A stretch of 62,796 nt of DNA from Kiritimatiellia bacterium (GTDB lineage: Bacteria; Verrucomicrobiota; Kiritimatiellia; RFP12; UBA1067): contig JAKSOW010000002.1 of NCBI GenBank assembly GCA_024405395.1, positions 1-62,796 of the forward strand. The letters are read 5' to 3'. Position numbers and translations under genes: made by a program. The notes beneath the pieces are model-generated. The model searched no databases, was not told the DNA's origin, and worked only from the letters and a program-made list of their open reading frames with translations. Positions 4,772 to 26,336 of this stretch are shown piece by piece (the first letter of the stretch is position 1; every line of letters starts with the position of its first letter).

Positions 4772-5959
4772 TCAGCGTCCCATGAACTGACCGGCCAGCA
4801 GAAGCGTGTCGGATTTCTCGTCCCAGACGAAATAGAGGAAGGGACGGTTGAGGATGAAGGATTCCCTGGGCATGGCCTGGCGTTCTTCATCCTCTTCGCG
4901 TTCCCGCCAGGAGCGCCGCCTATCCTGTTTGGGCGGAGGCGGCGGTGTGACGCCGGGCGTGAGCGAATAGCCGGTTTCCACGATCTTGATGTAGGCAGCC
5001 TGGACGACTTCGTTGATCTTGAAGTCTTCGCCAATGCGTTGGTAGCCGCTTACCGGCACCTTGAAGACGGCAAGCGAGGAGAGCAGCTCCCAGCGCGAGA
5101 GGTTCTCCATGCGCGGCAGTGCCACCTTGAGCGGCAATACGTCCACCTCGGCGCCACTTTTCGCGCGGAAAAGCGATTTGAGCTCGTCAATGGGGATCTT
5201 CCGTGTAAGGTTGTCGCGGAGGTCGCGGATGGGCGTTCCCGCAGGCGGCAGCAAGTAGAGCATCGACATGCCGGCGGCGGCAAAGGGCACGCGGATGGCG
5301 GTGACATGGTCGTTCTTGACGCGTACGACCTCCTGCAGTTCGCCATGCATCATCGTCAGCTTGGTTGTGCTGCCGTCTTCGCGCGTGAACGTCTCGGACA
5401 CGGAGCGGTCCGGGTCAAAGCCCTTTGCCCAGGCGCCTTCAAAGGCGATGGCATTGAGCAGCAGGACGTCTGTGCGGGGATTGACCTTGTCGATGATCGC
5501 GGCGATGCGACCATCCGTCTTCGCCTCCGTCCAGGCGTTGATGGGTTCCTCATTGATGAGGCTACCGGTTTCGGCCTCGAAATTGCGCTGAAGCGAATGG
5601 CGGTAGTCCAGATCAAGCTTCTTGCGCTGGCGGGTCCAGAGGGAGGGCGCGAACGTGATGTTCACCGCGTTTGAGGCCGAGGCCTCGGCGTAGGATTTGA
5701 ACACATAGGAAAAGGCATTGCCGAAGTCGCTCAAGAGGCCCAGGGCCTCCGCGATGTTGGCCCGATGATTGCCGCCGGTCCCCTCGCCAAGCATTGCCAC
5801 GGAAATGGCGAATCCGATGGGGGAGAACAGCTTGTCCGAGGACTCCGTCAGGGGCACGGCGTGATTCCAGCCGCGAATCTCGAACTCGCTGGGACGCCAA
5901 GCGTCCGCAAGAAGGAGAACTGGTGCCAACACGGCCAGGCTTAACACAGATTTTCTCAT
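4772..5959 (-). CDS. secreted serpin-family protein (395 aa) with atypical reactive-centre loop
   Basis: ATG at 5959. Signal peptide MRKSVLSLAVLAPVLLLADA. Serpin body motifs are present: LLLNAIAFEGAWAKGF, MSMLYLLP, and the C-terminal FILNRPFLYFVWD (F-x-x-x-RPF-L-F signature). The rest of the 906-aa ORF upstream is antisense shadow. Confidence 0.85.
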   Translation of the reverse strand: MRKSVLSLAVLAPVLLLADAWRPSEFEIRGWNHAVPLTESSDKLFSPIGFAISVAMLGEGTGGNHRANIAEALGLLSDFGNAFSYVFKSYAEASASNAVNITFAPSLWTRQRKKLDLDYRHSLQRNFEAETGSLINEEPINAWTEAKTDGRIAAIIDKVNPRTDVLLLNAIAFEGAWAKGFDPDRSVSETFTREDGSTTKLTMMHGELQEVVRVKNDHVTAIRVPFAAAGMSMLYLLPPAGTPIRDLRDNLTRKIPIDELKSLFRAKSGAEVDVLPLKVALPRMENLSRWELLSSLAVFKVPVSGYQRIGEDFKINEVVQAAYIKIVETGYSLTPGVTPPPPPKQDRRRSWREREEDEERQAMPRESFILNRPFLYFVWDEKSDTLLLAGQFMGR

Positions 5960-6039
5960 GGCCAGAATTATACCCGAACCCCCTAGCCTTTGGCAAGGGC
6001 AATTTCCAGAATCGATGATTGAGGAAAAGCGCTTTATGC

Positions 6040-6068
6040 TTGACTTTTGGCCGCATTTGGGGGATAAT
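6040..6068 (+). promoter_or_regulatory. candidate sigma-70 promoter for the 6110 gene
   Basis: TTGACT (6040-6045), 17-nt spacer, GATAAT (6063-6068), about 40 nt upstream of the ATG at 6110, inside a locally AT-rich divergent intergenic region. Confidence 0.45.
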
Positions 6069-6109
6069 CTTAGCTCGTTTCCTAGTGATAACCGAGAAGG
6101 TTCCCAATT

Positions 6110-7678: not shown

Positions 7679-7723
7679 CCCCCATAACCTTTTAACCTTC
7701 TAATAACATCCCACTCTCCAGCA

Positions 7724-10159
7724 ATGAAGCTTCCTCTTTCCTGGCTTAACGAATACATCGACGTTTCCGACATCGCACCTGCGGACCTGGCTGAGCGCCT
7801 CACGCGCAGCGGGCTTCAGGTCGAGGCGATTGAAACGGTCGGTGCCGAACCGCTTTCCGATTCCTTCGTTGTGGGCGAAGTGCTTACCTGCGAAGTGATT
7901 GAGGGCACGCATCTGCACAAGACCACCGTCACTGACGGCACGGAGACCGTGCAGGTGGTCTGTGGCGCGCCGAACTGTCGTGCGGGCCTCAAGAGCGTGC
8001 TCGCCAAGATCGGCGCCGTGGTGCCGGAGGGCGGGTTCAAGATCAAGAAGGGCAAGCTGCGTGGCGTCGAATCGCTGGGCATGCTCTGCAGTTCCCGGGA
8101 GCTTGCGTTGCCGGGCGGCACGCATGAGGGCATCATCGAGCTGCCGGCCGACACGAAGGTCGGCGCGCTGGCGCGTGATGTGTTGGGCGGCGAGAAGCCT
8201 GAGACGGTCTTTGAGATCGAAGTGACCTGGAACCGTCCCGATGCGCTGTCGGTGATTGGTCTCGCCCGCGAGTTCTCGGCGGTGCTCAAGCGCCCGATGA
8301 AGATGCCGGCGGTGGATTTCGTCGAGTCCGACACGGATGTCAACGACGAGGTCAAGGTTGTGGTGGAGGACTCGGTTCGCTGCCCGCGCTACACGGCACG
8401 CGTCATCACCTCTGTGAAGGACGGTCCCTCGCCTGATTTCATGCGTCGTCGTCTGGAGGCGTCTGGTGTGCGTTCGCTCGGTCTTCTTGTCGACGTCACG
8501 AACTACGTGATGCTGGAGCTCGGGCAGCCGATGCATGCCTTCGACTACCGCACGCTGGCGGGGCGCACCATTGTCGTGCGCGATGCCAAGCCCGGCGAGA
8601 CGATGAAGACGCTGGACGGCGTGGAACGCAAATTCACCCCCGACATGCTGCTCATCTGCGACGCCGAGAAGGCCAGTGCCGTGGCCGGCGTCATGGGCGG
8701 CGAACAGAGCGAGATTGCCGCAGGCACGGACCATGTGCTGCTGGAGAGCGCACTCTTCGATCCCGCCTCCACCAAGGACACGGCGACGGCGCTTGACCTT
8801 TCGACTGAAGCCGCCTATCGCTACATCCGCGGCGTGGACAAGGATCTTGCCGACTTCGCCTCCCGTCGTGCCGCCCACCTGCTGCAGAAATACGGTGCGG
8901 CCGTGGTCGCCAAAGGCGTGGTTGACGTCGACAACCGCGTGCAGCCCCTCAACGGCGACGTCTCGCTCGACTTTGAGCGTGCGCGCAAGCTCATCGGCAT
9001 TCCCGTGGGCAATGACGCCATGGTTTATCTGCTTGAGTCGCTGGGCCTCGTGTGCCGCGAAAAGGGTCCCTACGCCGCAAAGGCGTCGGTGATCTTCGGC
9101 ATTCCCTCCTGGCGCTGGGATCTCACCCTGGAGGCGGATCTCGTCGAGGAAATCGCGCGTCTTTACGGGCTCGACAACATTCCCGACACGATGCCCTCCG
9201 CGCCGAGCGTCTCCTCTCTTTCGGACGCGCCTTTCCGTGCGAAGAACAAGGTGCGTGCCACCTGCCTCGCGCTGGGCTTCACCGAGGCGATGCACTACTC
9301 GTTCCTGTCGCAGGGCGGGCTGGGCGCGTGCGACGCGCGTACGACGGGGACGCGGCTGGCGCGGCCGGATCCCGTTTCGGCCGAGTACGGCGTGTTGCGC
9401 GACTCTCTGATGCCGCAGCTCTATGGTTCGCTCGGTCGCAATGCCTCGCATCAGATCGAGGCCGCCAAGCTCTTCGAGCTCGGTCGCGTGTTTGGCCGCG
9501 ACGCCAACGGCCGCCCCTGCGAAAGCGAAAAGCTCTCGCTCGGTTTCTTCGGTCCTGTGGGGCGTGACGCCCTTGACCGCCGTCGTGCGGTCACGGCCGA
9601 GGAGGCGTTGCTGTGGATGAAGGGTGCGCTGCTGCAGCTGACGCAGCGTCTGCACGTGGGCAAGCTGATGTTCCGTCCGCTCGCCGACCATCCGGCGTTC
9701 GAGGCCGCGTTGGAGCTCGTCGTCAACGGGCGTCCTGCGGGCGTGTGCGGCGTCGTGTCCCAGAAGCTGCGCCATCCGTTCCGCCTCACCACGCAGATGG
9801 CGCTGGCGGAGATCGACGTGGCTGCCATCGTGCAGCGCGTGGATGCGGCCGGCAAGGCCCAGGCGGTGCCGGCGTTCCCGATGGTGCGCCGCGACTTCTC
9901 CTTCGTGGCGGGCCCCGAGGTCACGCACGAGGCCGTCGAGAAGTGCATCCGCAAGGCCGCCCCCAAGGAACTGGTGGCCATTGATCTCTTTGACATCTAT
10001 TCGTCCAAGGAACTCGGCAAGGGGCGCCGCAGCTTCGCCTACAAGCTGGCTTTCCGCGCCCCCGACCGTACGCTGACGGACGATGAGGTGAATCGGGCCT
10101 TCGCCAAGGTCCTGGATGCGCTGCGCACCCAGATCAAGGTGGAAGTGCGCGATTCGTAA
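7724..10159 (+). CDS. pheT: phenylalanine--tRNA ligase beta subunit
   Basis: 811 aa. The N-terminus MKLPLSWLNEYIDV is the canonical PheT start. The length is typical of PheT, and the C-terminal segment RRDFSFVAG...SFAYKLAFRAPDRTLTDDEV has the typical ending. Confidence 0.95.
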   Translation: MKLPLSWLNEYIDVSDIAPADLAERLTRSGLQVEAIETVGAEPLSDSFVVGEVLTCEVIEGTHLHKTTVTDGTETVQVVCGAPNCRAGLKSVLAKIGAVVPEGGFKIKKGKLRGVESLGMLCSSRELALPGGTHEGIIELPADTKVGALARDVLGGEKPETVFEIEVTWNRPDALSVIGLAREFSAVLKRPMKMPAVDFVESDTDVNDEVKVVVEDSVRCPRYTARVITSVKDGPSPDFMRRRLEASGVRSLGLLVDVTNYVMLELGQPMHAFDYRTLAGRTIVVRDAKPGETMKTLDGVERKFTPDMLLICDAEKASAVAGVMGGEQSEIAAGTDHVLLESALFDPASTKDTATALDLSTEAAYRYIRGVDKDLADFASRRAAHLLQKYGAAVVAKGVVDVDNRVQPLNGDVSLDFERARKLIGIPVGNDAMVYLLESLGLVCREKGPYAAKASVIFGIPSWRWDLTLEADLVEEIARLYGLDNIPDTMPSAPSVSSLSDAPFRAKNKVRATCLALGFTEAMHYSFLSQGGLGACDARTTGTRLARPDPVSAEYGVLRDSLMPQLYGSLGRNASHQIEAAKLFELGRVFGRDANGRPCESEKLSLGFFGPVGRDALDRRRAVTAEEALLWMKGALLQLTQRLHVGKLMFRPLADHPAFEAALELVVNGRPAGVCGVVSQKLRHPFRLTTQMALAEIDVAAIVQRVDAAGKAQAVPAFPMVRRDFSFVAGPEVTHEAVEKCIRKAAPKELVAIDLFDIYSSKELGKGRRSFAYKLAFRAPDRTLTDDEVNRAFAKVLDALRTQIKVEVRDS

Positions 10160-10168
10160 ACGACGTGG

Positions 10169-10323
10169 GCTCTGGACTGCACGCGGATTCGGCAGTAAAT
10201 TTCTCCGACCTTCATTTTCGTAAGGGAGCCTGAATGCGGCTAGCTGTGGCGAACCGACTAGGGCACCCGCTTGGGACATGAGGTCCCGGGGATTCTGTAC
10301 TACGGCAGTTCGGGGCTTTTTTT
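10169..10323 (+). other. candidate structured RNA or long-stem terminator between pheT and the methyltransferase gene
   Basis: The 12-nt segment 10169-10180 (GCTCTGGACTGC) can pair fully with 10305-10316 (GCAGTTCGGGGC; 9 Watson-Crick plus 3 G-U pairs). A T7 run follows at 10317-10323. There is an internal 8-bp hairpin at 10270-10290. No family recognised. Confidence 0.25.
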
Positions 10324-10336
10324 AAGACAGAAAAAC

Positions 10337-11197
10337 ATGACAGAACTCACCTCGCCCGCCAACCCTAAGATCAAGTATGTCGTCAAGCTCCGCACGTGCT
10401 CCGTGCGCGAGGAGACGGGCGAGATGATTGTCGAGGGATTCCGCGAATGCCGTCGCGCGCTCGACAACGGCTATCGGCCGCATGCGGTCTTCTTCTGTCC
10501 GGAGCTCTATCTCAAGAACGAGAACGAGCCTGGCCTGGTGGCGGATTGCGAGAAGCGCGGGGCGGAAGTGTTCCGGTGCGCGAAGAACGCATTCCTCAAG
10601 ATGGCCTACAAGGACCGCCCGGACGGGCTGCTGATGGTTGGTCCGCATGTGGCCAAGCATCTGGAGGGCCTGCAGCTGCCGCCCAATGCCCTGGTGATTG
10701 TCACCGAGGCAATCGAAAAGCCCGGCAATCTCGGCACCATTCTCCGTTCGGCGGATGCCGCCAAGGCCGCGGCCGTGATTGTGTGCGACCGCACGACCGA
10801 CGTGCACAACCCGAATGTCGTGCGCGCTTCGACGGGCACGATGTTCTCCGTGCCGATCATCGAGGCGTCATCCGATGAAGCCCTGGCCTGGCTCAAGGCC
10901 CACGGCTTCAAGATCCTTGCCGCCACGCCGCATGCCGAGAAGCTGCACTTTGAGGTTGATCTGACGGGGAATGTGGCTCTTGCTGTGGGGGCCGAGCAAT
11001 ACGGGCTCACGGCGAAGTGGATGGACAATGCGGATCTGCGCGTGCGCATCCCGATGCTGGGACTGGCCGACTCGCTCAACGTCTCCGCCGCCACCACGAT
11101 TCTCGTTTATGAGGCCGTGCGCCAGCGCATTGCCGCCGGAATCGACCAGGTGCCCGCTTTTGTTCCCTGGCACGGCGAAGGCCGCCACGATCATTGA
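10337..11197 (+). CDS. TrmH/SpoU-family RNA 2'-O-methyltransferase
   Basis: SpoU motifs EKPGNLGTILRSADAAKAAAVIV and IPMLGLADSLNVSAATTILVYE. The ATG at 10337 follows the T-run, whereas the TTG at 10271 would read through the hairpin and T-run. Confidence 0.85.
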   Translation: MTELTSPANPKIKYVVKLRTCSVREETGEMIVEGFRECRRALDNGYRPHAVFFCPELYLKNENEPGLVADCEKRGAEVFRCAKNAFLKMAYKDRPDGLLMVGPHVAKHLEGLQLPPNALVIVTEAIEKPGNLGTILRSADAAKAAAVIVCDRTTDVHNPNVVRASTGTMFSVPIIEASSDEALAWLKAHGFKILAATPHAEKLHFEVDLTGNVALAVGAEQYGLTAKWMDNADLRVRIPMLGLADSLNVSAATTILVYEAVRQRIAAGIDQVPAFVPWHGEGRHDH

Positions 11198-11211
11198 GAA
11201 AGGACTGAATT

Positions 11212-13113
11212 ATGATTCGTACCACTATCCTGGCGGGCCTGGCGCTCGCCTCCTGGACCATATTTGCCGGCAAGCCCGTTGAACTGGTGAATTCCGCATT
11301 TGAGCAGGTGGATGCGAAGGGCGTGCCGGTGGGCTGGAGCAGACACGCCAACTGGCATGCGGAGCGGGCGGGGCATAATGGGTCCGGCGGTTATGTCTAT
11401 ACATGCACCAATGCGGCGATGTGGCGCGGGGGGCGTCCACATCAGGATGTGAAGCTTACGCCCGGCAAGCGTTACCTGTTCTCCGCGCTCGTGAAGGCCG
11501 ATGGTCTGAAGACCGAGCGCTCGGCGCACGGCATCGGCCTCTACATCGAGGGGTGGAACGCCTCGAACAAGTGGGTGTGGGGGGCGCAGTCAAAGCCCAT
11601 GGTCAACGGCAGGAGCCGCGATTGGGTGAAGGTGCAGGGCCTTACGCGCGAAGTGCCGGACGACCTGGTGCGGGCCCAGATCCAGCCGTATGTGAACGGC
11701 AAGGGGATGGGACGCGCCATCATCGACAATGTCTATCTCGAGGAGTTCGAAATGCAGCCCGTTGAAGGGGTGTACGCCGACAAGTATCGCCACGAGGCCG
11801 TTTCCGGCAATGTCACCTTTCATGCGGTCATCAACACGGACCTTCATGCGAATCTGCTTACGGACTATTCCGCCGTCTTCACCTATGTGGGCGCGGATGG
11901 TGCTGCGAAGACGGTTCCGGGGCAGGTGGCCTCTGGTACGCATGCCTGTGTGACGCTGCCGGCCGCCGAACTCGCGGAGGGGACCAATGAAGTGGTGTGC
12001 GCATTGTCCCTCAAAGGACAGGAACTCGGCCGTGGCGCGTGCCGTTTCGCCCGTCTTGCCGCGCCGACGCCGCGTCGAGTATACATCGACGAGTTCCGCC
12101 GCACGATTGTGGATGGCAAGCCGTTCTTCCCGCTGGGCATGTACTTCCGCCAGGTCACGGCTTCCAATCTCGCGCACTACTGCGAGGCGCCGTTCAACGT
12201 TCTGATGCCGTACAAGCGTCCAGAAAAGGCCGAATTCGATCTCTGCGCCGACCATGGCCTCAAGGTGATCTACAATCTACAGGGGTGTTTCCACGAAAAG
12301 GACGCCGGCAAGGCGTGGATGACGGCGCGCATCGCAGAATTCAAGGACCATCCTGCGCTGCTTGCCTGGTACACCAATGACGAGAAGCCCCTTACCGACA
12401 TCCCGCGCCTCACGATGCGCCAGCAGTGGGTGGAGGAGCTGGACAAGGATCACCCCACCTGGAGCGTGCAGGACGTCTACACGGAACTCGCCCACTATCT
12501 GCCCACCTACGACGTGCTCGGCATGGATCCCTATCCGATCGGACGGAAAATGCCCATCGGCCGCTGCATCTACACGATGCGCCAGAGCGACAAGGATGCC
12601 TTCGGCATGCGCGCCGTGTGGCATGTGCCGCAGGCCTTTGGCTGGAACTGGCTCAACCGCAGGGAGACGGCGAAGATGGTGTGCCCTACGCGCGAGGAGC
12701 TGGAGAACATGAGCTGGCAGGCGATTGCCGGCGGCGCGAATGGACTCGTCTACTATGCCTATCACCACATTGTGGAACCCCGCGCCACGAAGAACAACGA
12801 TGACGAATTCACCTGGGGTGACATGTGCGCGATTGCCCGTGACATCAAGAAATACGAGGATGTGCTGTTGGCCAAGCCCGGAATCGTGGTGGAAGGCGCG
12901 ACGGACGAATTGGCTGTGCGCACTTGGCGCAAGGATGGGGCAGACTACATGCTGATCGTCAACTGCACGGTCGAACGGCAGCAGGCGACGTTGCGGCTCT
13001 CGCGGAAGATTGGTGACGTGTCGGCCGATCTGGGTCCTGCGCCGAAGGTTAATGGCGATAGACTTGAAGTGGATTTCCCGCCGATGGCCTACACGATGCT
13101 GAAGCTGATGTAA
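11212..13113 (+). CDS. secreted glycoside-hydrolase-like protein (N-terminal CBM-like module plus TIM-barrel-like domain)
   Basis: Signal peptide MIRTTILAGLALASWTIFA. NSAFEQVDAKGVPVGWS is a CBM4/9-like opening. GKPFFPLGMYF and HPALLAWYTNDE are typical of GH42/GH5-like barrels. The family is not resolved. Confidence 0.5.
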   Translation: MIRTTILAGLALASWTIFAGKPVELVNSAFEQVDAKGVPVGWSRHANWHAERAGHNGSGGYVYTCTNAAMWRGGRPHQDVKLTPGKRYLFSALVKADGLKTERSAHGIGLYIEGWNASNKWVWGAQSKPMVNGRSRDWVKVQGLTREVPDDLVRAQIQPYVNGKGMGRAIIDNVYLEEFEMQPVEGVYADKYRHEAVSGNVTFHAVINTDLHANLLTDYSAVFTYVGADGAAKTVPGQVASGTHACVTLPAAELAEGTNEVVCALSLKGQELGRGACRFARLAAPTPRRVYIDEFRRTIVDGKPFFPLGMYFRQVTASNLAHYCEAPFNVLMPYKRPEKAEFDLCADHGLKVIYNLQGCFHEKDAGKAWMTARIAEFKDHPALLAWYTNDEKPLTDIPRLTMRQQWVEELDKDHPTWSVQDVYTELAHYLPTYDVLGMDPYPIGRKMPIGRCIYTMRQSDKDAFGMRAVWHVPQAFGWNWLNRRETAKMVCPTREELENMSWQAIAGGANGLVYYAYHHIVEPRATKNNDDEFTWGDMCAIARDIKKYEDVLLAKPGIVVEGATDELAVRTWRKDGADYMLIVNCTVERQQATLRLSRKIGDVSADLGPAPKVNGDRLEVDFPPMAYTMLKLM

Positions 13114-16800: not shown

Positions 16801-17773
16801 GCCGACCGCCGCCGCCACATCCACGACCGCCGCGGCCATGCGCTTCTATGACGCCAACGTCAAGCGGACGAACGGGGACGACTCCGAAACCAGATATGAT
16901 ACGGTCCAGGAGACGTTCCTGGTGGTTGCCCGCCATGGTTCGCAAGGAAACAACCTCATCGGTGATGCGAGTGCCGCCGGTACGACAACAGACGCCGCCG
17001 GACGCCTTTTGCCCAATGGCGGCAACTACATGAGCGTCAGCACGCTGGCATATCCGAGCTACAGCTATTTGACGCTCACCAACGATTCGGGCACGGTCTT
17101 CGTGAATGGAGAGAGCGTGAAGGGTTCGACCTACACGTTCACGGAGGCCATGGGCTTCAAGCTGATCGAATACCGTCCGGGCGGCAATACGCGCGTGGGC
17201 GCGCTTGCGCTCGACCGCAACTGCAATGCGGGCGGCTGCTACATCTGCGAGGTGATCGGTTTCGACCATGTGCTGACGGATGCCGAACGTACGCAGTTGC
17301 GCGCGCAACTTCAGAACAAGTGGTTTGGGCTTGAATTGCCGCCGCGCACATTCACGTCCATAGAAGTCGTCCCGGGGGCGTCGCTGGACATGGGCACGGC
17401 AGACCTTGCCGTTTCCTCGGTCTCGGGTGGCGGTCTGTTGACCTGCGGTGGATTGACGCTAGCCGGCTTCGAGGCCGCGGCGGAGATCGCCGTTGCCTAC
17501 CATTCGGCAGAGGATGTGGATTGCTTTACTGTGACAAGCCCTGTGTCGTTCCCGAATGGCGTGAAGGTGTCGGTGTCGTTTGCGGGCGTGAACATGGCGG
17601 ACGTGGTGCCGGGCGAATGGCCGATCTTCACGGCCCCGGGCCTGACGCTGGCGCCGCATGCGCTTTCCTTCGAGCACGACTATGCGGGCACGCGCTGCGT
17701 CTCGATTGTTCGTAGTGGCAACACCCTGTTGCTGCGTGTGATGCCGCGTGGCACCACAATCATTTTCCGCTGA
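13820..17773 (+). CDS. giant secreted autotransporter-associated beta-strand-repeat (PATR) protein with three LamG-like modules (paralog P1)
   Basis: The ORF opens at TTG 13775; in-frame ATGs at 13820 and 13841 precede the signal-like stretch GLILSLMVMVGMSSAISGA. PATR-type units: KVGPGTLQVG...EEGTLELRG, VKAGAGTLAVE...EAGTVKF. Three LamG-type endings: SLTRAERLIVSRYLEAKW, KLDIEEFRDTEAYLMKKW, VLTDAERTQLRAQLQNKW. Confidence 0.75.
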   Translation: MKKGCHAMTTAALREKSNTGDSHGLILSLMVMVGMSSAISGAATPVTWTNTFAYADELSSRASTQWGNVTNWVDAGGAMPTVAPTNGVDQFAVTLAPHAYVYDAEGKKVLDEGYRKLITTGSWSGSDSNIRLDYPAVDPAIASIEGPASYRITHTVMSTYKQQKARVFTVGDPNNFLGWWATGDAYAWFRLLATETFTPTLQGLYTSRRPYVDVPAAGTTAAVAALGEGGSLDKVGPGTLQVGPSADPSSGFLVEEGTLELRGRDEGELARILNLAALHLDADNESTLVYTNVVEEPGYRFVDRWNDVRGNGNYAYFPDFRYGNPASEYAVYYYPYTLPPFESPATSPTGRRLIDFGSKFADKGALGPSNCVLKLNKAVTGISDAFVVEWDPKGGTDVTLLGGLGGATLDYNRKGLYLWGPSQHQLNNGFKTCEVIFNDGVYWWNDPVLKCASLTNLFTACFSSEATGRVEALGTDRYYLSRSNRTRAGEIILFTNSLTRAERLIVSRYLEAKWRTGLPHDLDGYSAVTAAGAKIAVDEGHTAYLATVTATNGTFVKAGAGTLAVEQLSPAGVAVVQEAGTVKFTQKLRAPTSTGPAADAYIWLDASDAADFTFEDGSDTRVTVWRDHRADKTVVATACDDQKLGNLPTLQRAAVNGKAVVSMGRSAASQQAYFALPTWTDAAKYVYAGFMVLRPSVAGSTSHNYFGSSDLTMMRNSGYGILSATYKQADALAARWTINGDVVDPMARQSAYTRQTNDFFVLSFLSSQPLVMNAINKDRRGQQAAGCGDIEVGEVLVYHRKLDIEEFRDTEAYLMKKWLGKEHPAVGAAHISSLMAADGQDAVLDADRDIVVDEVVATGEKFVKKGTGSADVRQMPVDTPPMALAVEGGALKPKFAFNPDNSALFHFDASNVDSMRLQVSDDQAVTNVTHWYDSRGNGLYARSEWDAQTTYAKDRSETSFAFAVTDPKLVTVTLAEGVTGLALDFGTKRNCQDKPTAAATSTTAAAMRFYDANVKRTNGDDSETRYDTVQETFLVVARHGSQGNNLIGDASAAGTTTDAAGRLLPNGGNYMSVSTLAYPSYSYLTLTNDSGTVFVNGESVKGSTYTFTEAMGFKLIEYRPGGNTRVGALALDRNCNAGGCYICEVIGFDHVLTDAERTQLRAQLQNKWFGLELPPRTFTSIEVVPGASLDMGTADLAVSSVSGGGLLTCGGLTLAGFEAAAEIAVAYHSAEDVDCFTVTSPVSFPNGVKVSVSFAGVNMADVVPGEWPIFTAPGLTLAPHALSFEHDYAGTRCVSIVRSGNTLLLRVMPRGTTIIFR

Positions 17774-17789
17774 GTAAGGAACTCTCAAT

Positions 17790-20321
17790 ATGAAAACTTC
17801 TGTCCTGATGATGATGGGCGCCACTCTCATGTGCGCGACCACGGTGTTGGCCGCCACCTACACGGTGGAGGTGGACGATGCGCACACTTTCGAATCGCCG
17901 CTTGAGCTGGCGAATGCGTCGGTGAGCGTGGATGGCGCGGAGGCGGTTGCGTTTTCGACGCTTCTGGACGGCGAGGGGAAATTCACCGCTTCCGGCACGT
18001 TTGTGAAAACGGGACCAGGTTTTCTCGTCTCCTCGCCGGCGATGGCGAACTTCACCGGGGAAATCCGCATCGCGGCCGGTGCGCTCATTGCGTGCGCGGG
18101 AGGCGATCTCGGGCCGAGTGTCGTTTCCTCTGCGCCACTGGTGACGGTCTCGGACGGCGCCACGCTCGTCTTCTCCACGCCCAAGAAGTGCGGCTTCTAC
18201 AACTCGCTTGTGCTTGCGGGCGAAGGCGTGTCGTTGGCAGGCAAGAAAATGGGCGTCCTGTGCCTCAATTCCGCTGTCCATCAGCAGGACTATTTCTTCT
18301 ACGCAGGATGGGAGCTTACAGGCGACGCCACATTCACGTCGATGACGGACATGCGCATGGACATCGGGGACCGCACCGTGAAGTTGAACGGGCATGTGCT
18401 CACCTTTAGACCGTATGACCGGAAGGGCGGGCAGATCTGCATGAGCGGCACCGTCGTGACGCCTGGCGTTGGCGGCAAGATCGAGATACAGGGCAGCTGC
18501 CGCCTCCAGTCGCAGGCCAACGGTACCTGGAACGGCGACGCCTCCAATGAATTGGTGTTCAATGACAGTTCGTATATCGGCTACTACAACAATGGCGTGA
18601 AGGCACCCTGGACAATGGTGTGGAACACCACGGGAGCGCTCTCGCCGGGCGGCACCCTAGGGTCGACACCGGGTGGCTGGGCGAAGACGAACTACCTGTA
18701 TTGGACGGGCCCGGTTCGCATCGCGGGCGACATGCTTAAGATCTCCGGCGGCGAGACGCAGCGTACCTATGCGTTTCGTGGCCCTGTTTCGGGCAGTGGC
18801 GGCATCTATTGCTACGCCTCCTGGCTGCATCTCGTCGACCCTGCCAATACGTTTGAGGGGCCGGTTGTCGTGTCCGATCCGGGAAAGAGACCATCCGGAC
18901 TCTGCCTCTACAATCCGGGCGCTCTGCCGCGGAACGGGCATCCGACCACGATCACGAACGCGCCGCTCATGATGGCGGCGAATGGCGCGTATGCGCTGCC
19001 GGCGCTCGCGTATCACGTGGCCAGCGGCACGAACTTCAGCATCACGGGTGGCAGCCTTGGTTCGTCGGCGGAATCGCTCAGGAAGACCGGCGCCGGACGG
19101 CTTACGGTGGCGGCGCCGCTCGCCATCTCGGACGTCCTCAGGCTAGAGGAAGGCACCGTGACGCTGCCGCCGGTGAAGGGTACGCTTCATTCGGGTGTGC
19201 CGGGGCTTTGGCGTGGTGTGCTGCTGCCGCCCTGCACAAACAGCGCAGGCGATCTTGTGTCGCTTGTGACGAATGCAAGTGGGGCGATCGTTCCGCCCGA
19301 CGGAGCATATTTTGACAAAACGCAGCCGGCGTTCATGGATCAGCCCGGCACGGCCCTTTCGAATGAAGTGGTCTCCTGCATGGACTGGATGCGCCAGACA
19401 TCCTATCCGCCGTGGACCCAGTATGGCGCGGTCTCGTGGAGCGGATATGTGTGGAACCGGTCCGCGACGAATGAGACCTGGCGTTTCGCGCAGGCGGTCT
19501 GCGGCTATTCGCGGTTCTGGCTCGATGGCGTCCGGATTCAGAGCTCAGACGACAATGGGCGCGTGTTTTTCAATGACAAGCTGATTACGCCCGGACCGCA
19601 CAGGATCGTGTTCAAGGTCTGCCCGCGCAACTACGCCGGGCCCGGGTCGATCGCGAATCCCGGCCTGCAGTCGATCAACGGGGTTTCCCAAGGCACGGGC
19701 ACAAAGTTCTATACCTGGGGACCGAAGATGGGCTTTGCGATCGACTTCGAGGGGCGGGGTTCCACGAATGTGGTCGATTTCACCTTCCCCGAGAATGCCG
19801 ACGTGGGCTATGTCGCGGGGGGTGACGGTTCTCGCTTCACGCGCGATGCCCGTGACACCGCCGACTTTGACGCGGAGGAGCTGGCGGCGATGGTTCGCTC
19901 GGGCGTAACCTACTCGAACATCGTGGCAAAGGCGGGAACCACGATTGACCTTGGTGAAGGAAACGAATATCCGCTGCCGGTGCGCGCGTTCACGGGCACG
20001 ACCCAGGTTTTGAATGGTTCGCTGCGCATCGTCAAGGCGTTCAACCTCGTGGCGGTGGACAACAAGGCCTCGCCGCTGACGGTGACGGACGGCAAGCTGC
20101 TCTTCGATGCGGACGCGGAGATTTCGGTGGATGATGGTGCCGGATTCGGAAGTGAGCATGGCGTGCCGGTGGTGGTCGCGCGTGCAACAGCCGGCATCGA
20201 GGGGCTGCCCACACCGACCGCCAACTTCCTGGCCGCGCGCTGCCGACTGGCGAAGTCCGCCGACGGAAAGGAGCTCACGGTTACCGTGATGCCCAAGGGC
20301 GTAATTCTCTATTTGAAGTGA
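17790..20321 (+). CDS. secreted PATR-repeat protein with PA14-like module (paralog P2)
   Basis: Signal peptide MKTSVLMMMGATLMCATTVLA. PATR units FVKTGPGFLV...IAAGALIA and LRKTGAGRLTVAAPL...LEEGTVTL. The segment YGAVSWSGYVWNRSATNETWRFAQAVCGYSRFWLDGVRI resembles a PA14 core. It starts 16 nt after the P1 stop. Confidence 0.75.
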   Translation: MKTSVLMMMGATLMCATTVLAATYTVEVDDAHTFESPLELANASVSVDGAEAVAFSTLLDGEGKFTASGTFVKTGPGFLVSSPAMANFTGEIRIAAGALIACAGGDLGPSVVSSAPLVTVSDGATLVFSTPKKCGFYNSLVLAGEGVSLAGKKMGVLCLNSAVHQQDYFFYAGWELTGDATFTSMTDMRMDIGDRTVKLNGHVLTFRPYDRKGGQICMSGTVVTPGVGGKIEIQGSCRLQSQANGTWNGDASNELVFNDSSYIGYYNNGVKAPWTMVWNTTGALSPGGTLGSTPGGWAKTNYLYWTGPVRIAGDMLKISGGETQRTYAFRGPVSGSGGIYCYASWLHLVDPANTFEGPVVVSDPGKRPSGLCLYNPGALPRNGHPTTITNAPLMMAANGAYALPALAYHVASGTNFSITGGSLGSSAESLRKTGAGRLTVAAPLAISDVLRLEEGTVTLPPVKGTLHSGVPGLWRGVLLPPCTNSAGDLVSLVTNASGAIVPPDGAYFDKTQPAFMDQPGTALSNEVVSCMDWMRQTSYPPWTQYGAVSWSGYVWNRSATNETWRFAQAVCGYSRFWLDGVRIQSSDDNGRVFFNDKLITPGPHRIVFKVCPRNYAGPGSIANPGLQSINGVSQGTGTKFYTWGPKMGFAIDFEGRGSTNVVDFTFPENADVGYVAGGDGSRFTRDARDTADFDAEELAAMVRSGVTYSNIVAKAGTTIDLGEGNEYPLPVRAFTGTTQVLNGSLRIVKAFNLVAVDNKASPLTVTDGKLLFDADAEISVDDGAGFGSEHGVPVVVARATAGIEGLPTPTANFLAARCRLAKSADGKELTVTVMPKGVILYLK

Positions 20322-20362
20322 TGATGTGTGGATGACGGCGTAGTCAAGAAGGCAAGGATCCC

Positions 20363-23143
20363 ATGATCAGAAGAAATTGTTTGCGGGCGAGTTTGCTGGT
20401 ATTGGGCGCGTGTGTGGGGGGCGCGTCTCTGCAGGCGACTGAATTCATCTGGACCGGCAAAGCCGGGGACGGCGATTGGACGAATCCCACGAATTGGCAG
20501 TTCAGGAATGCTGCGGGCGACCACGGTTCCCCGCAAGCCGGCGACTCCATCTGGGTGTCCGTCAACTATCCTATGACGCTGGACGCCTCGAATGCGGCCA
20601 ACCTGGCCGTTCTCAACAGTGTGGACAGCGTGAACATTGCGGAATCTACGAGCTACTTCACGATTACGGTGCCATCTGCTACGGAGGCAACCATCTCCGT
20701 GCCCGTCTGGGGCGGCTATGGCGCGAGCGGGAGGGGTGATCCTTTGCGCGGAAACTTGACGGTTCAGGGCGGCGGTACGCTGCATCTGACCGCAACGGGC
20801 ATGTACGACTACTGCATGAAGAATCTTACGCTTGATGGCGCCTGCGTCTGGTTGCCGCAGAACCCCGATCTGGTGTTGACCCTGTACAGTCTGGGATCAA
20901 TCACCGTGACGAATGGCGCCACGCTGCATCTGCCCACCTGTCACGATGGCCAAAAAAACAACGGCGGAAATTATGTGAACATCGCGGCGCTTTATGGCGA
21001 CGGCACGGTGACAGCCTCAGAAGCCACGGAAGTGCGCTTCACATCCGCGGGCGGCGTTTTCGCGGGCGTGCTGGACAAGAACATCGGCCTCTTTTCCGGT
21101 GGCCGCCAATATCTGACGGGCGAAAATTCGTCGATGGCAGGAAAGGCCGCGCCGCTCGTCTACAACGCCAAGCTGCAGTGGTCGACCGGCATGGGACTTC
21201 TTGGCGTCAAGAAGTTTGGCTACGACGCCTCCGAACTTTCCTCGATCGGCAAGGGCGCCAGTTTTGCCGCGAATGTGAATGGTGCCACCTACCTCTACCT
21301 GGGAGAGGGCGAGACGACGACGAAATACTACAACATCTATCCGGCCAACAACGGTTATGATGTACTGGACGCCGGCACCTATGGCGGTCTGCAGTTCGTC
21401 ACCAACGGCGGTGTTTGGGTCAGTACAACGTCAAAGGTCTCCGCCAACAACAGTATCGTTGGTCTCAATGGCTCCAACACGACAGTTAGCGTCTTCCGTG
21501 GTCGTTATCTGGAGGACGCCGCCAACAGCAATCTGCTGACGACCGTGAAGAAGGGCACCGGCACCTGGCGTTTCGCCGATCCCGCGCTGGATGGCCTTTC
21601 GGTCGTGACCTACCGCAAATTCCGCGGCACGATCAGCGTGGATGAGGGCGTGCTGCAGTTCGACACGCTCGCGCCGCGCGGAGAATACTGTTCCGTGGGC
21701 CTCGCCACGCAGCTGAAGGGCCCCGTGCTGGGTACTTGGAGGGATCTGCCCGACGTCGACTGGGCCTTTTCGCTGGGCGGCACCAACGCGGCCCTGAAGG
21801 CGCTCGCGGAAGGCACGCTCGAGTACACGGGTACGTCTGCGGCACTCTGCGATGATCGTCGGGTTCGCCTGGAGGCCGATGGCCGTTTCCGCGCCAACGG
21901 ACCGAAGCACATCCGCTATCGTCTGGCCGAGAGTACGTCCGCTCGCGCGAAGACGCTTTCACTTGACGGCGCCTCCACTGCGACAAACGAAGTGAGCGAT
22001 CTCGTGGATTCGGCGGCTTATCCCGTCTCGCTGGTCAAGGAAGGCACGGGCAGTTGGTGTCTCGGCAACAATTCCGACATCCATGGCGATCTGACGGTCA
22101 AGGGCGGTACGCTCATCGTGCGCCAGCAGGACGTCGGCGCGAACTACACGTGGTTCCGCTTCACGGTGAAGGATCTTTTCGATTCGCCTTTGGGTATAGC
22201 CAAGGGCAATCTGTCCATGAGGTTCCTGGGCTTCTATGATGTGACGGGCCGTGACCAGACGCTCAACCTCCCGGCTTCAGAAGATGGTTTCGCCGCCTCG
22301 CTCCAGCCTGGACAATGCGCCTACGGCACGACACGCAGACACGCCAAGGGGTCGTATTCTCAGGTTCCCCATGACGACAACGTCACGAATCTCTTCCACG
22401 CCGCCACGGTCTACGACGCGAATATGCGCAATCTGGAAGGCTCCTCTAGCGGCTACTATCCGCGCCTGGACGTGCCGGCCTCCCACGTGCCGTTTGTCGT
22501 GCGTCTCACCAACGGCGCGCCCGCCATCGCCAGCTACGACTGGGCAACGACGTATGGCTGGACATCCGGCAACAAGGGCGGCTTCCACTGGATGCCGTGC
22601 CGTTGGTCGCTTGAGGGCAGTGTCGACGGACTCCACTGGGAGGACCTGAACCCCGAGGGCGGCGACTACGTCATTACGACCAACGATTGCCCGGCGGTGG
22701 CCAGGGACGGCCGCTATGTCCACACGGACACGGCGTATTCGGCGGCGTCCGCAAATGTGCACTCGGGTGGGTGGCCGATCCGCGGCACGTCCACCAATGC
22801 GTTCGCGTGCTTGAGCCATGTGCAGTCGCTGCGCGTGGATGCGGGGGCGAGCTTGGTGCTTGACGGCCCGGCGCTTACGGTTTCGCGTCTGCGCATCGAT
22901 CCGAGCCAGGGCGTGGGCACAATCGCGGGCGTCACGTTCGCCGAGACTGGCCTGGTTGAACTGGCAAGCTCTGTCACCGAGGCGAAGACGCTGCCCTGCG
23001 ACTGGTCGGCCACGTCGGGTACGGAGAATCTCTCCGGATGGTCCGTGAAGGCAGATGGGCGGATCCAGGCGCGGTGTCGCGTGAAGTACGCGGATGGCGC
23101 ACTTGTCATTCTGCCGCCCGGGCTTACCCTCTCTTTCCGCTGA
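20363..23143 (+). CDS. secreted PATR-repeat protein with discoidin (F5/8 type C)-like module (paralog P3)
   Basis: Signal peptide MIRRNCLRASLLVLGACVGGASLQA. FIWTGKAGDGDWTNPTNW is a PATR-type opening. Further PATR units: VKKGTGTWRF and LVKEGTGSWCLGN...VKGGTLIV. WMPCRWSLEGSVDGLHWEDL is discoidin-like. Confidence 0.75.
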   Translation: MIRRNCLRASLLVLGACVGGASLQATEFIWTGKAGDGDWTNPTNWQFRNAAGDHGSPQAGDSIWVSVNYPMTLDASNAANLAVLNSVDSVNIAESTSYFTITVPSATEATISVPVWGGYGASGRGDPLRGNLTVQGGGTLHLTATGMYDYCMKNLTLDGACVWLPQNPDLVLTLYSLGSITVTNGATLHLPTCHDGQKNNGGNYVNIAALYGDGTVTASEATEVRFTSAGGVFAGVLDKNIGLFSGGRQYLTGENSSMAGKAAPLVYNAKLQWSTGMGLLGVKKFGYDASELSSIGKGASFAANVNGATYLYLGEGETTTKYYNIYPANNGYDVLDAGTYGGLQFVTNGGVWVSTTSKVSANNSIVGLNGSNTTVSVFRGRYLEDAANSNLLTTVKKGTGTWRFADPALDGLSVVTYRKFRGTISVDEGVLQFDTLAPRGEYCSVGLATQLKGPVLGTWRDLPDVDWAFSLGGTNAALKALAEGTLEYTGTSAALCDDRRVRLEADGRFRANGPKHIRYRLAESTSARAKTLSLDGASTATNEVSDLVDSAAYPVSLVKEGTGSWCLGNNSDIHGDLTVKGGTLIVRQQDVGANYTWFRFTVKDLFDSPLGIAKGNLSMRFLGFYDVTGRDQTLNLPASEDGFAASLQPGQCAYGTTRRHAKGSYSQVPHDDNVTNLFHAATVYDANMRNLEGSSSGYYPRLDVPASHVPFVVRLTNGAPAIASYDWATTYGWTSGNKGGFHWMPCRWSLEGSVDGLHWEDLNPEGGDYVITTNDCPAVARDGRYVHTDTAYSAASANVHSGGWPIRGTSTNAFACLSHVQSLRVDAGASLVLDGPALTVSRLRIDPSQGVGTIAGVTFAETGLVELASSVTEAKTLPCDWSATSGTENLSGWSVKADGRIQARCRVKYADGALVILPPGLTLSFR

Positions 23144-23189
23144 TCTTTTCCGATGTGGTGCGGCAACTGCCGAATGGAGTAACGTGATC

Positions 23190-26100
23190 ATGAAGAATCT
23201 GTTTGTTCTGGCGCTCGCCTGTGGCCTCGGCGTCGTGGCTTCGGCAAAGGACGATCTGGTGATTTCGGCGGCCGATGGCTTTGCCGCCGTCACGCGCGTG
23301 TCGAACGCACGCATGGAGCGGACGCCAACGTCGCTCGTCTTCACGGACATCCTTCCCGACATGCAGGTGTATCTGAAGACGCCCGTCGTCTTTTCGGGCG
23401 AAATCGAGGGCTTTGAATTCCGCTATCGTGCCTCAGGCCCCACGCCCAAGCCGAAGGCCGGCGGGGAACTCTTCTACGCCGCGTTCGGCGCATCATTCTC
23501 GGATGCGCGCGCCTGGTCGATTCCGGCGCTCGTGCGCGATGGCGAATGGCACACGCTTCGGCTTACGCTTTCAGCCATCCGCAAGCCCGCCGAATGGGAG
23601 GCGAGCGGCCGCATGACCAAGTTCCGTCTCGACCCCACGAACGCCGAGGGGGGCAAGATCGAGATCTCCGAGATTCGGTTCATTCGGCGGGGGGCGTCTG
23701 CAAAGGCCGCCGTGCGCACGGCTAAGTTCCACGGCGAGGACGCCTGGCCCGAAGTGACGCCTGAATTGTTCCGGCACGCCCAGCCGCCGCCCTTGGAGAA
23801 GGTGGAGGCGGCCCTGGTCGAGCTCCAGGGCGGCACGGCCGTGCCGCGTGTGCAGACGGCCGGGCAAAAGGTCCATCTGCGCTATGATTACCGTGGGCCC
23901 GAGCCGAAGGGCGAGTTCCTGACGGGGAAGCTCCTGATGCTCACGCCGAAGGGGACGCTCAAATGGTGCGAGCCGCTGACGCTGGCGCGTGCGCAGGTGC
24001 TTACGCGCATGGCCGACGATCGCTGGGCGCTGGAGTTCGACTATGAGGTGCCGCCCTATCTCGGGGAGGGGACATGCGACGTGAGTTTTGACGTGGTCGG
24101 CGTCAAGCCGTGCAAGGGGCGTGAGACGGGCGCGCGCCTGACGGTGAAGCGTTTGGCGGTTGATCCCGACTGGGCTGCGCCTATTTCCGCCAAAGTCGTC
24201 GACGTCGCTGGCACCCCTGCCTTCGCCGTGAACGGCACCCCCGTCTATCCGCTCTGGGGCACAATCGCCTATGGCCGCCATGCCGAGGAGCATCCCTCGC
24301 GCCATTCCTCAGCGCCGCTCAACTTCACCACGGTATGGACGCGCCATCTCGAGTGGTGGCCGCGCGGGGACGAGTTCGACCCCACCGACCTCGACCGTCT
24401 CGCCGAGCAGCACCGCCGCGAATTCCCGGGCGCGTACTTCATGTGGGACATCTCCATCTATCCGCCGCCGGACTGGCGTGACGCCAATCCCGACGACATG
24501 GCGCGGGACGAGCAGGGGCACATCAACACCGACTGCGGCGATGCGGAGATCAACTACACCTTTGCCTCGCAGAAGGCATATGATGACATGACGCGCGTGA
24601 TGAAGAAGGTTATCGCCTACCTGGAGAAGGCGCCCTACGCCAACCGAATCGTCGGTTACCGCATCAATTCCGGCCACACCGTCGAGTGGCTGGGCTGGGA
24701 TCCTTCGCGCAAGGGGACGATCCTCGACTTCTCGCCCGTCGCGCAGAAGGGGTTTGAGGCCTTCGCCAAGGCGCACTACCCGTGGGTGACGGACTATTCC
24801 GTGCCGACGCTTGCCGAACGCCGCGAGCTCGACGGCACCGATCTGCTCTGGGACCAGCGCAAACACGCGCGCACGATCGCCTACCACGACTTCTACTGCA
24901 CCGCCGTCGCCGATGGCGCGATCCGCATGTGCCGTGCGGCAAAGGCCGCGGTGGACGGTCGCAAGCTGGTGGGCACCTACTTCGGCTACGTGATGACGCT
25001 CAACGCGGGTGGGCGCAACCAGATGCGCGCGCATTACGCGATGAAGCACTTCCTCGATGCGCAGGCGACGGACTTCGTGATGAGTCCGCAGAACTACACC
25101 CACATCTCCCGCCAGCCCGGCACGCTCATCAACGACATGAAGCCGTTCAAGTCCATTCAGGACCACGGCATGGTCTCGGTGATCGAGGACGACACGCGCA
25201 CGCACAACATCATGCCAGTCGGCTACTGCCAGACTCTCAATGAGGAGATGACTGTGAGCATTCTGCGCCGCAACATGGGCGTCGCGCTCTGCCGCAACCA
25301 GCCGTTCTACACCTACGCCATCACGAGTGGGCATGAATTCGACTTCCCGCAGTTCGCCGACGACGCGGCTGCCCTGGCCCAGGCGGGCGCCTACGCCCTG
25401 GAGAAGGGCGTTGCGCGCAAGGCCGAGATCGCCTACATCGTGAGCGAGGAGGCGATGAAGTCGACCTCCATGAACCATGGCAACGGCGAGGTGTATGTCG
25501 GCCGTTCGCTGCAGACCTACGACAAGACAGGCAAGGTCGTGCCCTACGAGTCGCTCGGCGGTCCGAAGCTCGCCGCCTGGGCGTATTCGAACATCTACAC
25601 GGAGCTTGGGCGCATCGGTGCGGGCGTCGACTATCTGCTGGCCGAAGACGTGGCGGATCATCCGGGCAACTACAAACTCTACATCTTCAACGGCTGCACG
25701 AAGCTGACGCCCGCGCTGCTCAAGGCGGCCGAAACGTTGCGCACGCGCAAGTGTACGATTCTCTGGACTTACGCGCCCGGCTATACGTCCAACGACGGCA
25801 ATTCGCTCGCGAACATGAAGGCCCTCACGGGACTGGACTTCCAGCTGTGCCCGGACGTGACGGAACCCGGCGTCACCCTGGCGGACGGTTCGCGCACTGG
25901 GGCGCTTGTCTATCCGAAAGGGCAGCCGGCGCTTTCGCCGATCTTCGCGGTTGCGAACCCCCAGGATGTGATCGGGCGCTACACGAATGGTGCGGCGGGT
26001 CTGGCCGCCTCTCAGACGGGGCTGGCGCGGACGGTCTTCTCGGGGTCGTATTTCCTGGAGACGCCGCTGATGCAGCGCCTTGCGCGCGAGGCGGGCGTGC

Positions 26101-26336
26101 ACATCTTCTCCGAATCGCGTGACGTGCTGGAGGCCAACGCGAACTTCCTTCTTTTCCATGCGCGCAACGCCGGCAAGAAGACGATTCGCCTGCCGAAGAA
26201 GACGCAGGTGATTGACGTGTTCAACCGCCGCCTCGTCGCGGAAGGCGTCGACTGCTTTGAATTCGACGCCCCCCTGCATGGCACCTATTTCTTCTATTTT
26301 GGTGACGATGCCCAGAATTTGCTGGCGCGCCTGTGA
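23190..26336 (+). CDS. secreted glycoside-hydrolase-like protein (GH42-like barrel plus trimerisation-like domain); family uncertain
   Basis: The ATG at 23190 gives the signal peptide MKNLFVLALACGLGVVASA. The ORF-track start at 23094 overlaps the P3 end. YKLYIFNGCTKLTPALLKAAE...TILWTYAPGY resembles the GH42 middle domain. Confidence 0.4.
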   Translation: MKNLFVLALACGLGVVASAKDDLVISAADGFAAVTRVSNARMERTPTSLVFTDILPDMQVYLKTPVVFSGEIEGFEFRYRASGPTPKPKAGGELFYAAFGASFSDARAWSIPALVRDGEWHTLRLTLSAIRKPAEWEASGRMTKFRLDPTNAEGGKIEISEIRFIRRGASAKAAVRTAKFHGEDAWPEVTPELFRHAQPPPLEKVEAALVELQGGTAVPRVQTAGQKVHLRYDYRGPEPKGEFLTGKLLMLTPKGTLKWCEPLTLARAQVLTRMADDRWALEFDYEVPPYLGEGTCDVSFDVVGVKPCKGRETGARLTVKRLAVDPDWAAPISAKVVDVAGTPAFAVNGTPVYPLWGTIAYGRHAEEHPSRHSSAPLNFTTVWTRHLEWWPRGDEFDPTDLDRLAEQHRREFPGAYFMWDISIYPPPDWRDANPDDMARDEQGHINTDCGDAEINYTFASQKAYDDMTRVMKKVIAYLEKAPYANRIVGYRINSGHTVEWLGWDPSRKGTILDFSPVAQKGFEAFAKAHYPWVTDYSVPTLAERRELDGTDLLWDQRKHARTIAYHDFYCTAVADGAIRMCRAAKAAVDGRKLVGTYFGYVMTLNAGGRNQMRAHYAMKHFLDAQATDFVMSPQNYTHISRQPGTLINDMKPFKSIQDHGMVSVIEDDTRTHNIMPVGYCQTLNEEMTVSILRRNMGVALCRNQPFYTYAITSGHEFDFPQFADDAAALAQAGAYALEKGVARKAEIAYIVSEEAMKSTSMNHGNGEVYVGRSLQTYDKTGKVVPYESLGGPKLAAWAYSNIYTELGRIGAGVDYLLAEDVADHPGNYKLYIFNGCTKLTPALLKAAETLRTRKCTILWTYAPGYTSNDGNSLANMKALTGLDFQLCPDVTEPGVTLADGSRTGALVYPKGQPALSPIFAVANPQDVIGRYTNGAAGLAASQTGLARTVFSGSYFLETPLMQRLAREAGVHIFSESRDVLEANANFLLFHARNAGKKTIRLPKKTQVIDVFNRRLVAEGVDCFEFDAPLHGTYFFYFGDDAQNLLARL

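Follow-up and report, generated by a model that had tools for sequence, protein, structure and literature searches.

What does a common C-terminus do on proteins that have little else in common? The question is raised by a 62,796-nucleotide stretch of DNA from a Kiritimatiellia bacterium (contig JAKSOW010000002.1 of assembly GCA_024405395.1; hereafter the window), in which five long exported proteins, P1 to P5, converge on similar final residues. A sequence-only reading of this DNA had described them as five giant paralogs with a shared tail. Translation reproduces all five tail peptides, and the endings are indeed shared by bodies that BLASTP for the most part cannot relate to one another. 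Paralogy is supported for P2 and P5 (29% over 475 residues); the other bodies are not detectably similar, which makes the shared ending all the more striking. The four complete tails finish in a heptapeptide of the general form G-[T/L/M/F]-x-Φ-Φ-Φ-[R/K] (Φ, hydrophobic) immediately before the stop codon. This motif is no artefact: it is ancient within its lineage, tied to the extreme C-terminus, portable between proteins and absent from the curated libraries. Sequence comparison leads us to prefer, tentatively and as something short of probable, the reading that it is a lineage-specific tag which would dock on a putative partner by β-strand addition.

All five genes lie on the forward strand, and TGA follows directly on each of the four complete tails. 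P1 (13775–17773) is a 1332-residue exported protein whose open reading frame (ORF) opens at a TTG codon, with the signal peptide about 40 residues in; its tail peptide (17690–17770) closes with the heptapeptide GTTIIFR (17750–17770). P2 (17790–20321) is an 843-residue exported PATR-repeat protein (TIGR02601, 27.5 bits against a cut-off of 19.85), with its tail peptide at 20235–20318 and the heptapeptide GVILYLK at 20298–20318. P3 (20363–23143), likewise an exported PATR-repeat protein of 926 residues (TIGR02601, 26.8 bits against the same cut-off), has its tail peptide at 23069–23140 and ends in GLTLSFR (23120–23140). P4 (45830–48214) is an exported protein of about 790 residues with its probable start at the Met codon at 45851; its tail peptide (48119–48211) ends in GTMILFR (48191–48211). 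P5 (59648–62796) is an exported PATR protein related to P2. The window end removes its last ∼20 residues and cuts its tail peptide (62762–62794, ending in GWRCGVKNGAL) at position 119 of 140 in the profile of the end module described below, so that its heptapeptide is not visible. P1 and P4 fall below the TIGR02601 cut-off, and P1 matches no family in Pfam or NCBIfam apart from one weak chance hit. Sec-type signal peptides, as judged by eye, are present at the N-termini of P1 to P5 and of most of the complete long matches from other genomes.

Conservation of the tail is at the protein level, since codons differ among the four visible tails and the downstream DNA shares nothing. This rules out that the gene ends share a repeat or terminator in their DNA; scans of the window for Rfam families and tRNAs were negative. 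Chance was also rejected as the source of the shared ending. Over the genes called in the window and in 28 related loci, the pattern G..[ILVMFA].[FLVIYMW][RK] has a frequency of 0.0013 per residue position, which predicts 0.32 terminal matches among the 251 complete genes, whereas 38 are observed. A short off-frame ORF (44989–45237, forward strand) inside the membrane-protein gene at 44942–45823 also ends in the motif; among 547 six-frame ORFs one such match is expected by chance, and this is it.

Word-index homologue searches recovered very little of the family (three relatives of P2, and 11 short fragments with a 34-sequence module profile), and an exhaustive HMMER search with a profile of the end module was therefore needed. 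Run against 1.84 billion representative proteins, it returned 437 protein clusters at E ≤ 1e-3, 60 of them at E ≤ 1e-10. Among the best 149 alignments, 124 reach the last residue of the protein, 20 stop at most 12 residues short and correspond to variant tails, and five are internal, which confirms over hundreds of proteins that the tail marks the extreme C-terminus. Of 184 distinct tails, 93% have Gly at position −7; a hydrophobic residue is found in all of them at −4 and −2, in 85% at −3 and in 77% at −5. T, L, M or F occupies position −6 and Pro predominates at −9, the turn before the tail often being P-x-G. Aromatic residues are a minority, with Phe accounting for 21% at position −2. The last residue is Arg in 141 tails and Lys in 32 (94% together), the others being mostly Gln, and no extension follows it. 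The heptapeptide is the best-conserved part of the alignment, the mean column identity of the module being 24–30%, and it is kept in all three distant homologues of P2 (23–65% identity).

Relatives of P2, taken at one genome per species, come only from metagenome-assembled genomes (MAGs) labelled Kiritimatiellae/Kiritimatiellia, 'Verrucomicrobia' or 'Lentisphaeraceae' and from a few plainly misnamed bins; they derive from guts, rumens, digesters and comparable habitats. Among the species-representative assemblies, those titled 'Clostridium sp. CAG:138' and 'Limosilactobacillus gorillae' (loci L003, L006, L010, L012 and L022) hold high-GC contigs with Kiritimatiellia-type tail genes, and these bins look mislabelled or contaminated. 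Genomes carry several copies: five in the window, counting the truncated P5, and at least seven across four loci of one MAG.

In most cases the tail forms the end of a C-terminal module of PATR proteins, about 110–125 residues long and β-helix-like, with the rough consensus ...G.ttV.NG.l.v..w.l......l.vdG.L.F..Ga.l.v.d......y.iA.A.gGI.G.P......W.l..s.DGk.L.L.....GT.ΦΦΦR-stop. A profile built from 128 external sequences only recognises this module in P2 (residues 717–843, 19938–20318; E = 2e-28), in P1 (∼130 residues, 17381–17770; E = 4e-17, with the alignment reaching the last residue) and in P5 (62435–62794; E = 1.9e-15). It misses the ∼100 residues that precede the tail in P3 and the module of P4, which is divergent and has a 14-residue insertion in its hairpin, so that the link of these two proteins to the family rests on their last ∼20 residues. 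Neither a profile search of PDB sequences nor a Foldseek search of the PDB with the predicted module found a related structure at significance, the best weak Foldseek matches being autotransporter-passenger and tailspike β-helices.

The earlier description of the tail as a terminal β-hairpin, preceded by an R-C pair, needs revision at both points. In an AlphaFold2 (AF2) model of the last 200 residues of P2, computed from a 50-sequence alignment (mean predicted local distance difference test score, pLDDT, 80.7), the hairpin strands CRLAK and ELTVTV pair with each other and belong to the ∼120-residue module, while the last ten residues, MPKGVILYLK, have neither a DSSP strand nor a β-bridge; what survives of the description is a final heptapeptide that behaves as a separable unit. 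The Cys of R-C (codons within 17696–17701 in P1, 20238–20243 in P2, 23072–23077 in P3 and 62768–62773 in P5) stands at a position where Trp is almost conserved across the wider family, in an x-W-x-Φ strand, and where P4 has Leu. It is a lineage-specific Trp-to-Cys replacement rather than a feature of a signal, and is retained in a fragment of a ∼95% identical orthologue of P1 (P0013).

Two further observations, together with the unpaired tail in the AF2 model, indicate that the heptapeptide can be separated from the module. Firstly, 15 internal copies of the module occur in 13 proteins and none is followed by the motif, the profile match ending at positions 112–121 of 124, and yet 11 of these 13 proteins bear the tail at their own C-terminus. 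Secondly, the tail is found in 19 of 20 homologues (41–98% identity) of an NHL/SGL β-propeller family of about 640 residues that is unrelated to PATR. These proteins end in TG-x-EPPP-x-GT-x-x-x-x-[K/R, sometimes Q/H/Y/W]-stop, the tail being set behind a Pro-rich linker.

The range of carriers is correspondingly wide. Among 33 long carriers, 17 match PATR and others hold LamG, GDSL esterase, GH16, GH129, DUF2341 or pectate-lyase-like domains. Carriers in which no module is recognisable include LamG/BNR proteins and an ORF of only 80 residues. This smallest carrier (locus L031, 5514–5756), which lies between FGE-sulfatase-domain genes, has a signal peptide and ends in WYDYGTVILLR-stop; it could be a genuine mini-protein or the remains of a gene. 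The NCBI names of cluster members, from Kiritimatiellia and Lentisphaerota MAGs, are 'autotransporter-associated beta strand repeat-containing protein' or 'hypothetical protein'. The suggestion that the tail is restricted to one class of surface giants is thus contradicted by the propellers, the GH16, GH129 and GDSL proteins and the 80-residue ORF.

The preferred reading would account for these properties as follows. The heptapeptide with its free carboxylate would serve as a tag for surface-type proteins that Kiritimatiellia and close relatives export through Sec, its passengers being PATR β-helix adhesin-like proteins and proteins with lectin, glycoside hydrolase (GH) or esterase domains. 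Ending whichever domain is last, it would hang past a turn (often P-x-G) or a Pro-rich linker and offer an aliphatic, extended C-terminal β-strand, free to be read in trans, with the basic end residue and the carboxylate fixing its register. Docking would proceed by strand addition onto an exposed sheet edge or hydrophobic groove of the partner, most likely an outer-membrane protein, for example of Omp85 type, and the protein would thereby be directed to, or held at, the cell surface, which is where the neighbouring enzymes degrade glycans. The suggestion that such a tail is what a dedicated tag would look like retains its force in so far as the heptapeptide is C-terminus-locked, portable and present in several copies per genome on Sec-exported proteins; it is weakened by the existence of a serious structural alternative.

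That alternative is an intramolecular cap, in which the tail would be a hydrophobic plug on the last β-helix rung of PATR proteins, or a velcro strand of the NHL propellers, preventing edge-to-edge aggregation and having no role in sorting. β-Helix C-terminal caps and propeller velcro strands are well established, and the latter are common in β-propellers. Like the tail, such caps, autochaperone regions and velcro strands are terminal, hydrophobic and placed after the last rung or blade. The tail mostly follows a β-helix-like module, and the nearest, though not significant, structural matches to that module are themselves β-helices.

Several further observations weigh against a trans-acting tag, and some of them suit a cap. 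From −5 to −2 both faces of the tail are hydrophobic, as for a buried segment and unlike an amphipathic membrane strand, and aromatic residues are uncommon there. The last ten-residue block of the AF2 model of P2 has a pLDDT of ∼80, which is not disorder-like, so the tail may, on this model, pack on its own domain instead of hanging free. A full-length AF2 model of P2 draws the tail as a strand, at low confidence (computed from four sequences, with a pLDDT below 50 at the C-terminus, where it is unusable). The absence of tails behind internal modules could equally be explained by a cap, which is needed only where no domain follows; the domains after internal modules could do the capping. The last residue is basic in only 13 of the 19 NHL-family tails. 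The taxonomic restriction is apparent from a limited sample, comprising 27 GTDB loci and some named members of the clusters. Finally, no recurring partner gene was found in about 35 loci, in which only carbohydrate-active enzymes, AraC-type regulators, transporters and housekeeping genes surround the tail genes.

Other features are difficult to reconcile with a cap. Known caps and velcro strands are fold-specific and variable in length, whereas here one heptapeptide with a fixed stop is shared by two or more unrelated folds, in a single lineage as far as sampled, and is missing after internal modules. A Pro-rich linker precedes it in the NHL family, AF2 gives it no β-pairing, and P3 and P4 keep it although their preceding ∼100 residues miss the module profile. 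In 94% of tails the chain stops right after Arg or Lys; a purely structural strand needs no such exact chain stop, which favours a tag. The cap is the main rival of the docking tag and is considered possible but less likely.

Could the tail instead be a variant of a signal that is already known? In keeping with the sequence-only reading, no Pfam or NCBIfam model (June 2026) touches it, even at permissive thresholds of E ≤ 1–10, and literature searches found no described C-terminal signal of Kiritimatiellia. The CTERM models of NCBIfam (TIGR02595 and relatives) gave no match to the tail in 18 proteins. Tripartite sorting signals are recognised by their extreme C-terminal position, several copies per genome, signal peptides on the carriers and varied passengers (10.1101/2023.06.07.544157). 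The tail resembles the PEP-CTERM/exosortase, LPXTG/sortase, GlyGly-CTERM/rhombosortase and MYXO-CTERM/myxosortase signals in all four respects, and shares with them a layout in which a small-residue motif is followed by hydrophobic residues and a basic end. It differs in the substance of each part: in place of a multi-residue signature only Gly −7 is nearly invariant, in place of a segment of transmembrane-helix length there are four or five hydrophobic residues, and in place of a cluster of two to five basic residues there is a single Arg or Lys. With no membrane-spanning segment, the tail is not of PEP-CTERM type.

PATR-type proteins of other Planctomycetota–Verrucomicrobiota–Chlamydiota (PVC) bacteria commonly carry PEP-CTERM. 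A tail of classic form was encountered in one of the loci, L026, from a Kiritimatiellae MAG, where a VIT-domain protein related to XrtN-sorted proteins (7693–10050, reverse strand) ends in VPEPS, ∼20 hydrophobic residues forming a transmembrane segment, and RRRRR. Its gene lies about 7 kb from that of a protein with a GT...R tail. The PEP-CTERM model reported no match to the VIT-domain protein, and its NCBIfam matches fall on the body. From these sequences, exosortase-type sorting probably coexists with the new tail in this MAG. A PEP-CTERM or other tripartite signal, a shortened version included, was rejected in view of the missing transmembrane segment, the lack of any hidden Markov model match and the coexistence of the classic form.

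A less literal version of this idea is that the tail is a cleaved sorting signal of its own kind, cut near the Gly by a peptidase or transpeptidase comparable to sortase, exosortase or PorU of the type IX secretion system (T9SS), which would link the protein to a surface glycan or lipid and leave a mature form devoid of the tail. The near-invariant Gly (then Thr), the hydrophobic residues and the basic end would be a miniature of the known layout, the carriers are exported and present in several copies per genome, and in the NHL family a conserved EP[PS]P lies immediately upstream. However, the known intramembrane sorting enzymes require a substrate held in the inner membrane (10.1101/2023.06.07.544157), and such retention is impossible with a hydrophobic stretch of four or five residues and a single basic residue. 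The silence of the CTERM models and the wholly different look of the VPEPS tail in a related MAG also speak against cleavage. As noted before, no candidate sorting enzyme is visible in the window, and no sortase, exosortase, Omp85 protein or peptidase recurs beside tail genes in the flanks of the ∼35 loci. A cleaved signal is therefore regarded as improbable.

The C-terminal domain (CTD) of T9SS substrates is, like the module with its tail, a conserved C-terminal unit of about 100 residues, found on surface enzymes and adhesins that are secreted. The last strand of the CTD combines hydrophobic residues with a basic one, and its final residues are required for export, as reported for RgpB. The CTD is an immunoglobulin-like sandwich of ∼70–100 residues, whereas the present module, judged by its weak and non-significant structural matches, looks more like the end of a β-helix; it also occurs internally, and the separable unit comprises only seven residues. 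The models PF18962, TIGR04183 and TIGR04131 gave no match at E ≤ 1, and a T9SS CTD is excluded on this basis. T9SS has been described in Bacteroidota and relatives and is not known to occur in PVC bacteria.

A formal likeness exists to the β-signal of the β-barrel assembly machinery (BAM), with the consensus ζ-x-G-x-x-[Ω/Φ]-x-[Ω/Φ] (PMC10945584). The core G-x-x-Φ-x-Φ is the same in the tail (93, 100 and 100% at its three defined positions) and is likewise C-terminal, and recognition by β-augmentation would suit a short extended strand of this sort. The tail differs in the additional Arg or Lys after the last hydrophobic residue, in the predominance of Pro at position −9, in the low proportion of aromatic residues and in its hydrophobic intervening positions, which make the strand non-amphipathic. 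No barrel or autotransporter domain was found in the carriers with Pfam or NCBIfam, the AF2 model showing a β-helix-like end module. The 12-strand translocator barrel of a classical (type Va) autotransporter was discarded, since PF03797 gives no match and the proteins end ∼120 residues past the last repeat. Native barrel proteins were also sought in the loci for comparison of their C-termini, and the candidate ending in Phe proved to be a GH127 enzyme.

Short C-terminal strands that dock on BAM from outside the barrel repertoire have been described in a 2026 bioRxiv preprint for the lectin-like bacteriocins LlpA and pyocin L, in which a C-terminal peptide of ∼9 residues docks on strand 1 of BamA by β-augmentation and loss of the last two residues abolishes activity (10.64898/2026.09.25.754295). 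These peptides, like the tail, are short, C-terminal and carried by soluble proteins that are not barrels. They are hypervariable, amphipathic and aromatic-rich and belong to toxins aimed at other cells, whereas the tail is conserved, aliphatic, ended by Arg or Lys and carried by the cell's own exported proteins. By analogy they may be taken as a structural precedent for a short C-terminal strand on an outer-membrane partner, not as evidence for one here. A PDZ-type ligand was set aside on general grounds, PDZ domains preferring a hydrophobic last residue.

A bolder form of the docking reading would make the heptapeptide the address tag of an unrecognised sorting or surface-anchoring system that uses no transmembrane anchor, in which a dedicated outer-membrane or periplasmic receptor, neither an exosortase nor T9SS, places glycan-binding and glycan-degrading proteins. 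This is held to be conceivable rather than likely. The genes around the tail genes, in the window and in the related loci, encode GH106, GH16, GH5, GH10, GH78, GH127 and DUF4838 proteins, AraC-type regulators and transporters; with such neighbours, the tail carriers look like surface or secreted components of glycan-utilisation loci. The loci of the NHL propellers (L029 and L031, around 10001–11941) hold BNR sialidase-like proteins, a DHDPS-family (NanA-type) lyase, an SSF (sodium:solute symporter) transporter, FG-GAP/LamG proteins and several FGE-sulfatase-domain proteins, and this conserved arrangement looks like a locus for utilisation of sialoglycans or sulfated glycans.

Gene order bears on one more explanation, namely that the tail mediates self-association, its aliphatic strands zipping together in cross-β or donor-strand style so that tandem-encoded proteins form hetero-oligomeric surface fibres or layers. 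Tight tandem arrays do occur: P1, P2 and P3 are separated by gaps of 16 and 41 nucleotides, and an orthologue of P2 (65% identical) lies in an array of four tail-bearing genes in locus L001. The tails are also rich in β-branched aliphatic residues. Against this, many tail-bearing genes are solitary, proteins with enzyme domains carry the tail too, and there is no evidence of a matching acceptor groove. Self-association is accordingly seen as very improbable.

Some other features of these loci are recorded here. A SurA-like periplasmic peptidyl-prolyl isomerase (SurA_N and rotamase domains) is encoded at 49657–50562, 1.4 kb downstream of P4, and a similar one (locus L033, 17392–18429) is found ∼3.7 kb from a tail-bearing PATR gene on an unrelated Kiritimatiellia contig; the two occurrences could be coincidence. 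The central region of P2 (residues ∼505–640, 19300–19700) contains [WY]-[SG]-G-[YC]-[VI]-W-N-[RN]-S ... G-P-H, conserved in P2 and its relatives, has no Pfam match and is missing from P5, which otherwise aligns with P2; judging by its sequence it is possibly a lectin-like insert of a kind not yet characterised. Downstream of P3, the longest ORF (23094–26336) opens inside the last codons of P3; translation more likely begins at the Met of MKNLFVLA... near 23190, so that the product has a signal peptide. The resulting protein of ∼1050 residues and the proteins encoded at 11212–13113 and 32884–35400 belong to no Pfam family. On the reverse strand, a 906-residue ORF (4772–7492) has a serpin domain in its C-terminal 350 residues (E = 5e-47), preceded by a region of ∼550 residues that matches no family. 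It overlaps a long ORF on the opposite strand (6110–7678, forward), the end of which is rich in Ala, Pro and Glu.

Kiritimatiellia are abundant bacteria that degrade polysaccharides in guts, rumens, digesters and sediments, but they are poorly cultured. A seven-residue C-terminal signature that marks no fewer than 437 protein clusters and has no model in Pfam or NCBIfam offers a cheap means of listing the likely surface proteome of these bacteria from metagenomes, and its count per genome provides a handle for phylogenetic profiling toward any machinery involved. Should the heptapeptide prove to be a cap, it would still define a family and improve the annotation of proteins now called 'autotransporter-associated beta strand repeat' or 'hypothetical'. 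If it acts in trans, it would represent a new and very small sorting or anchoring signal of diderm bacteria, possibly useful in surface display.

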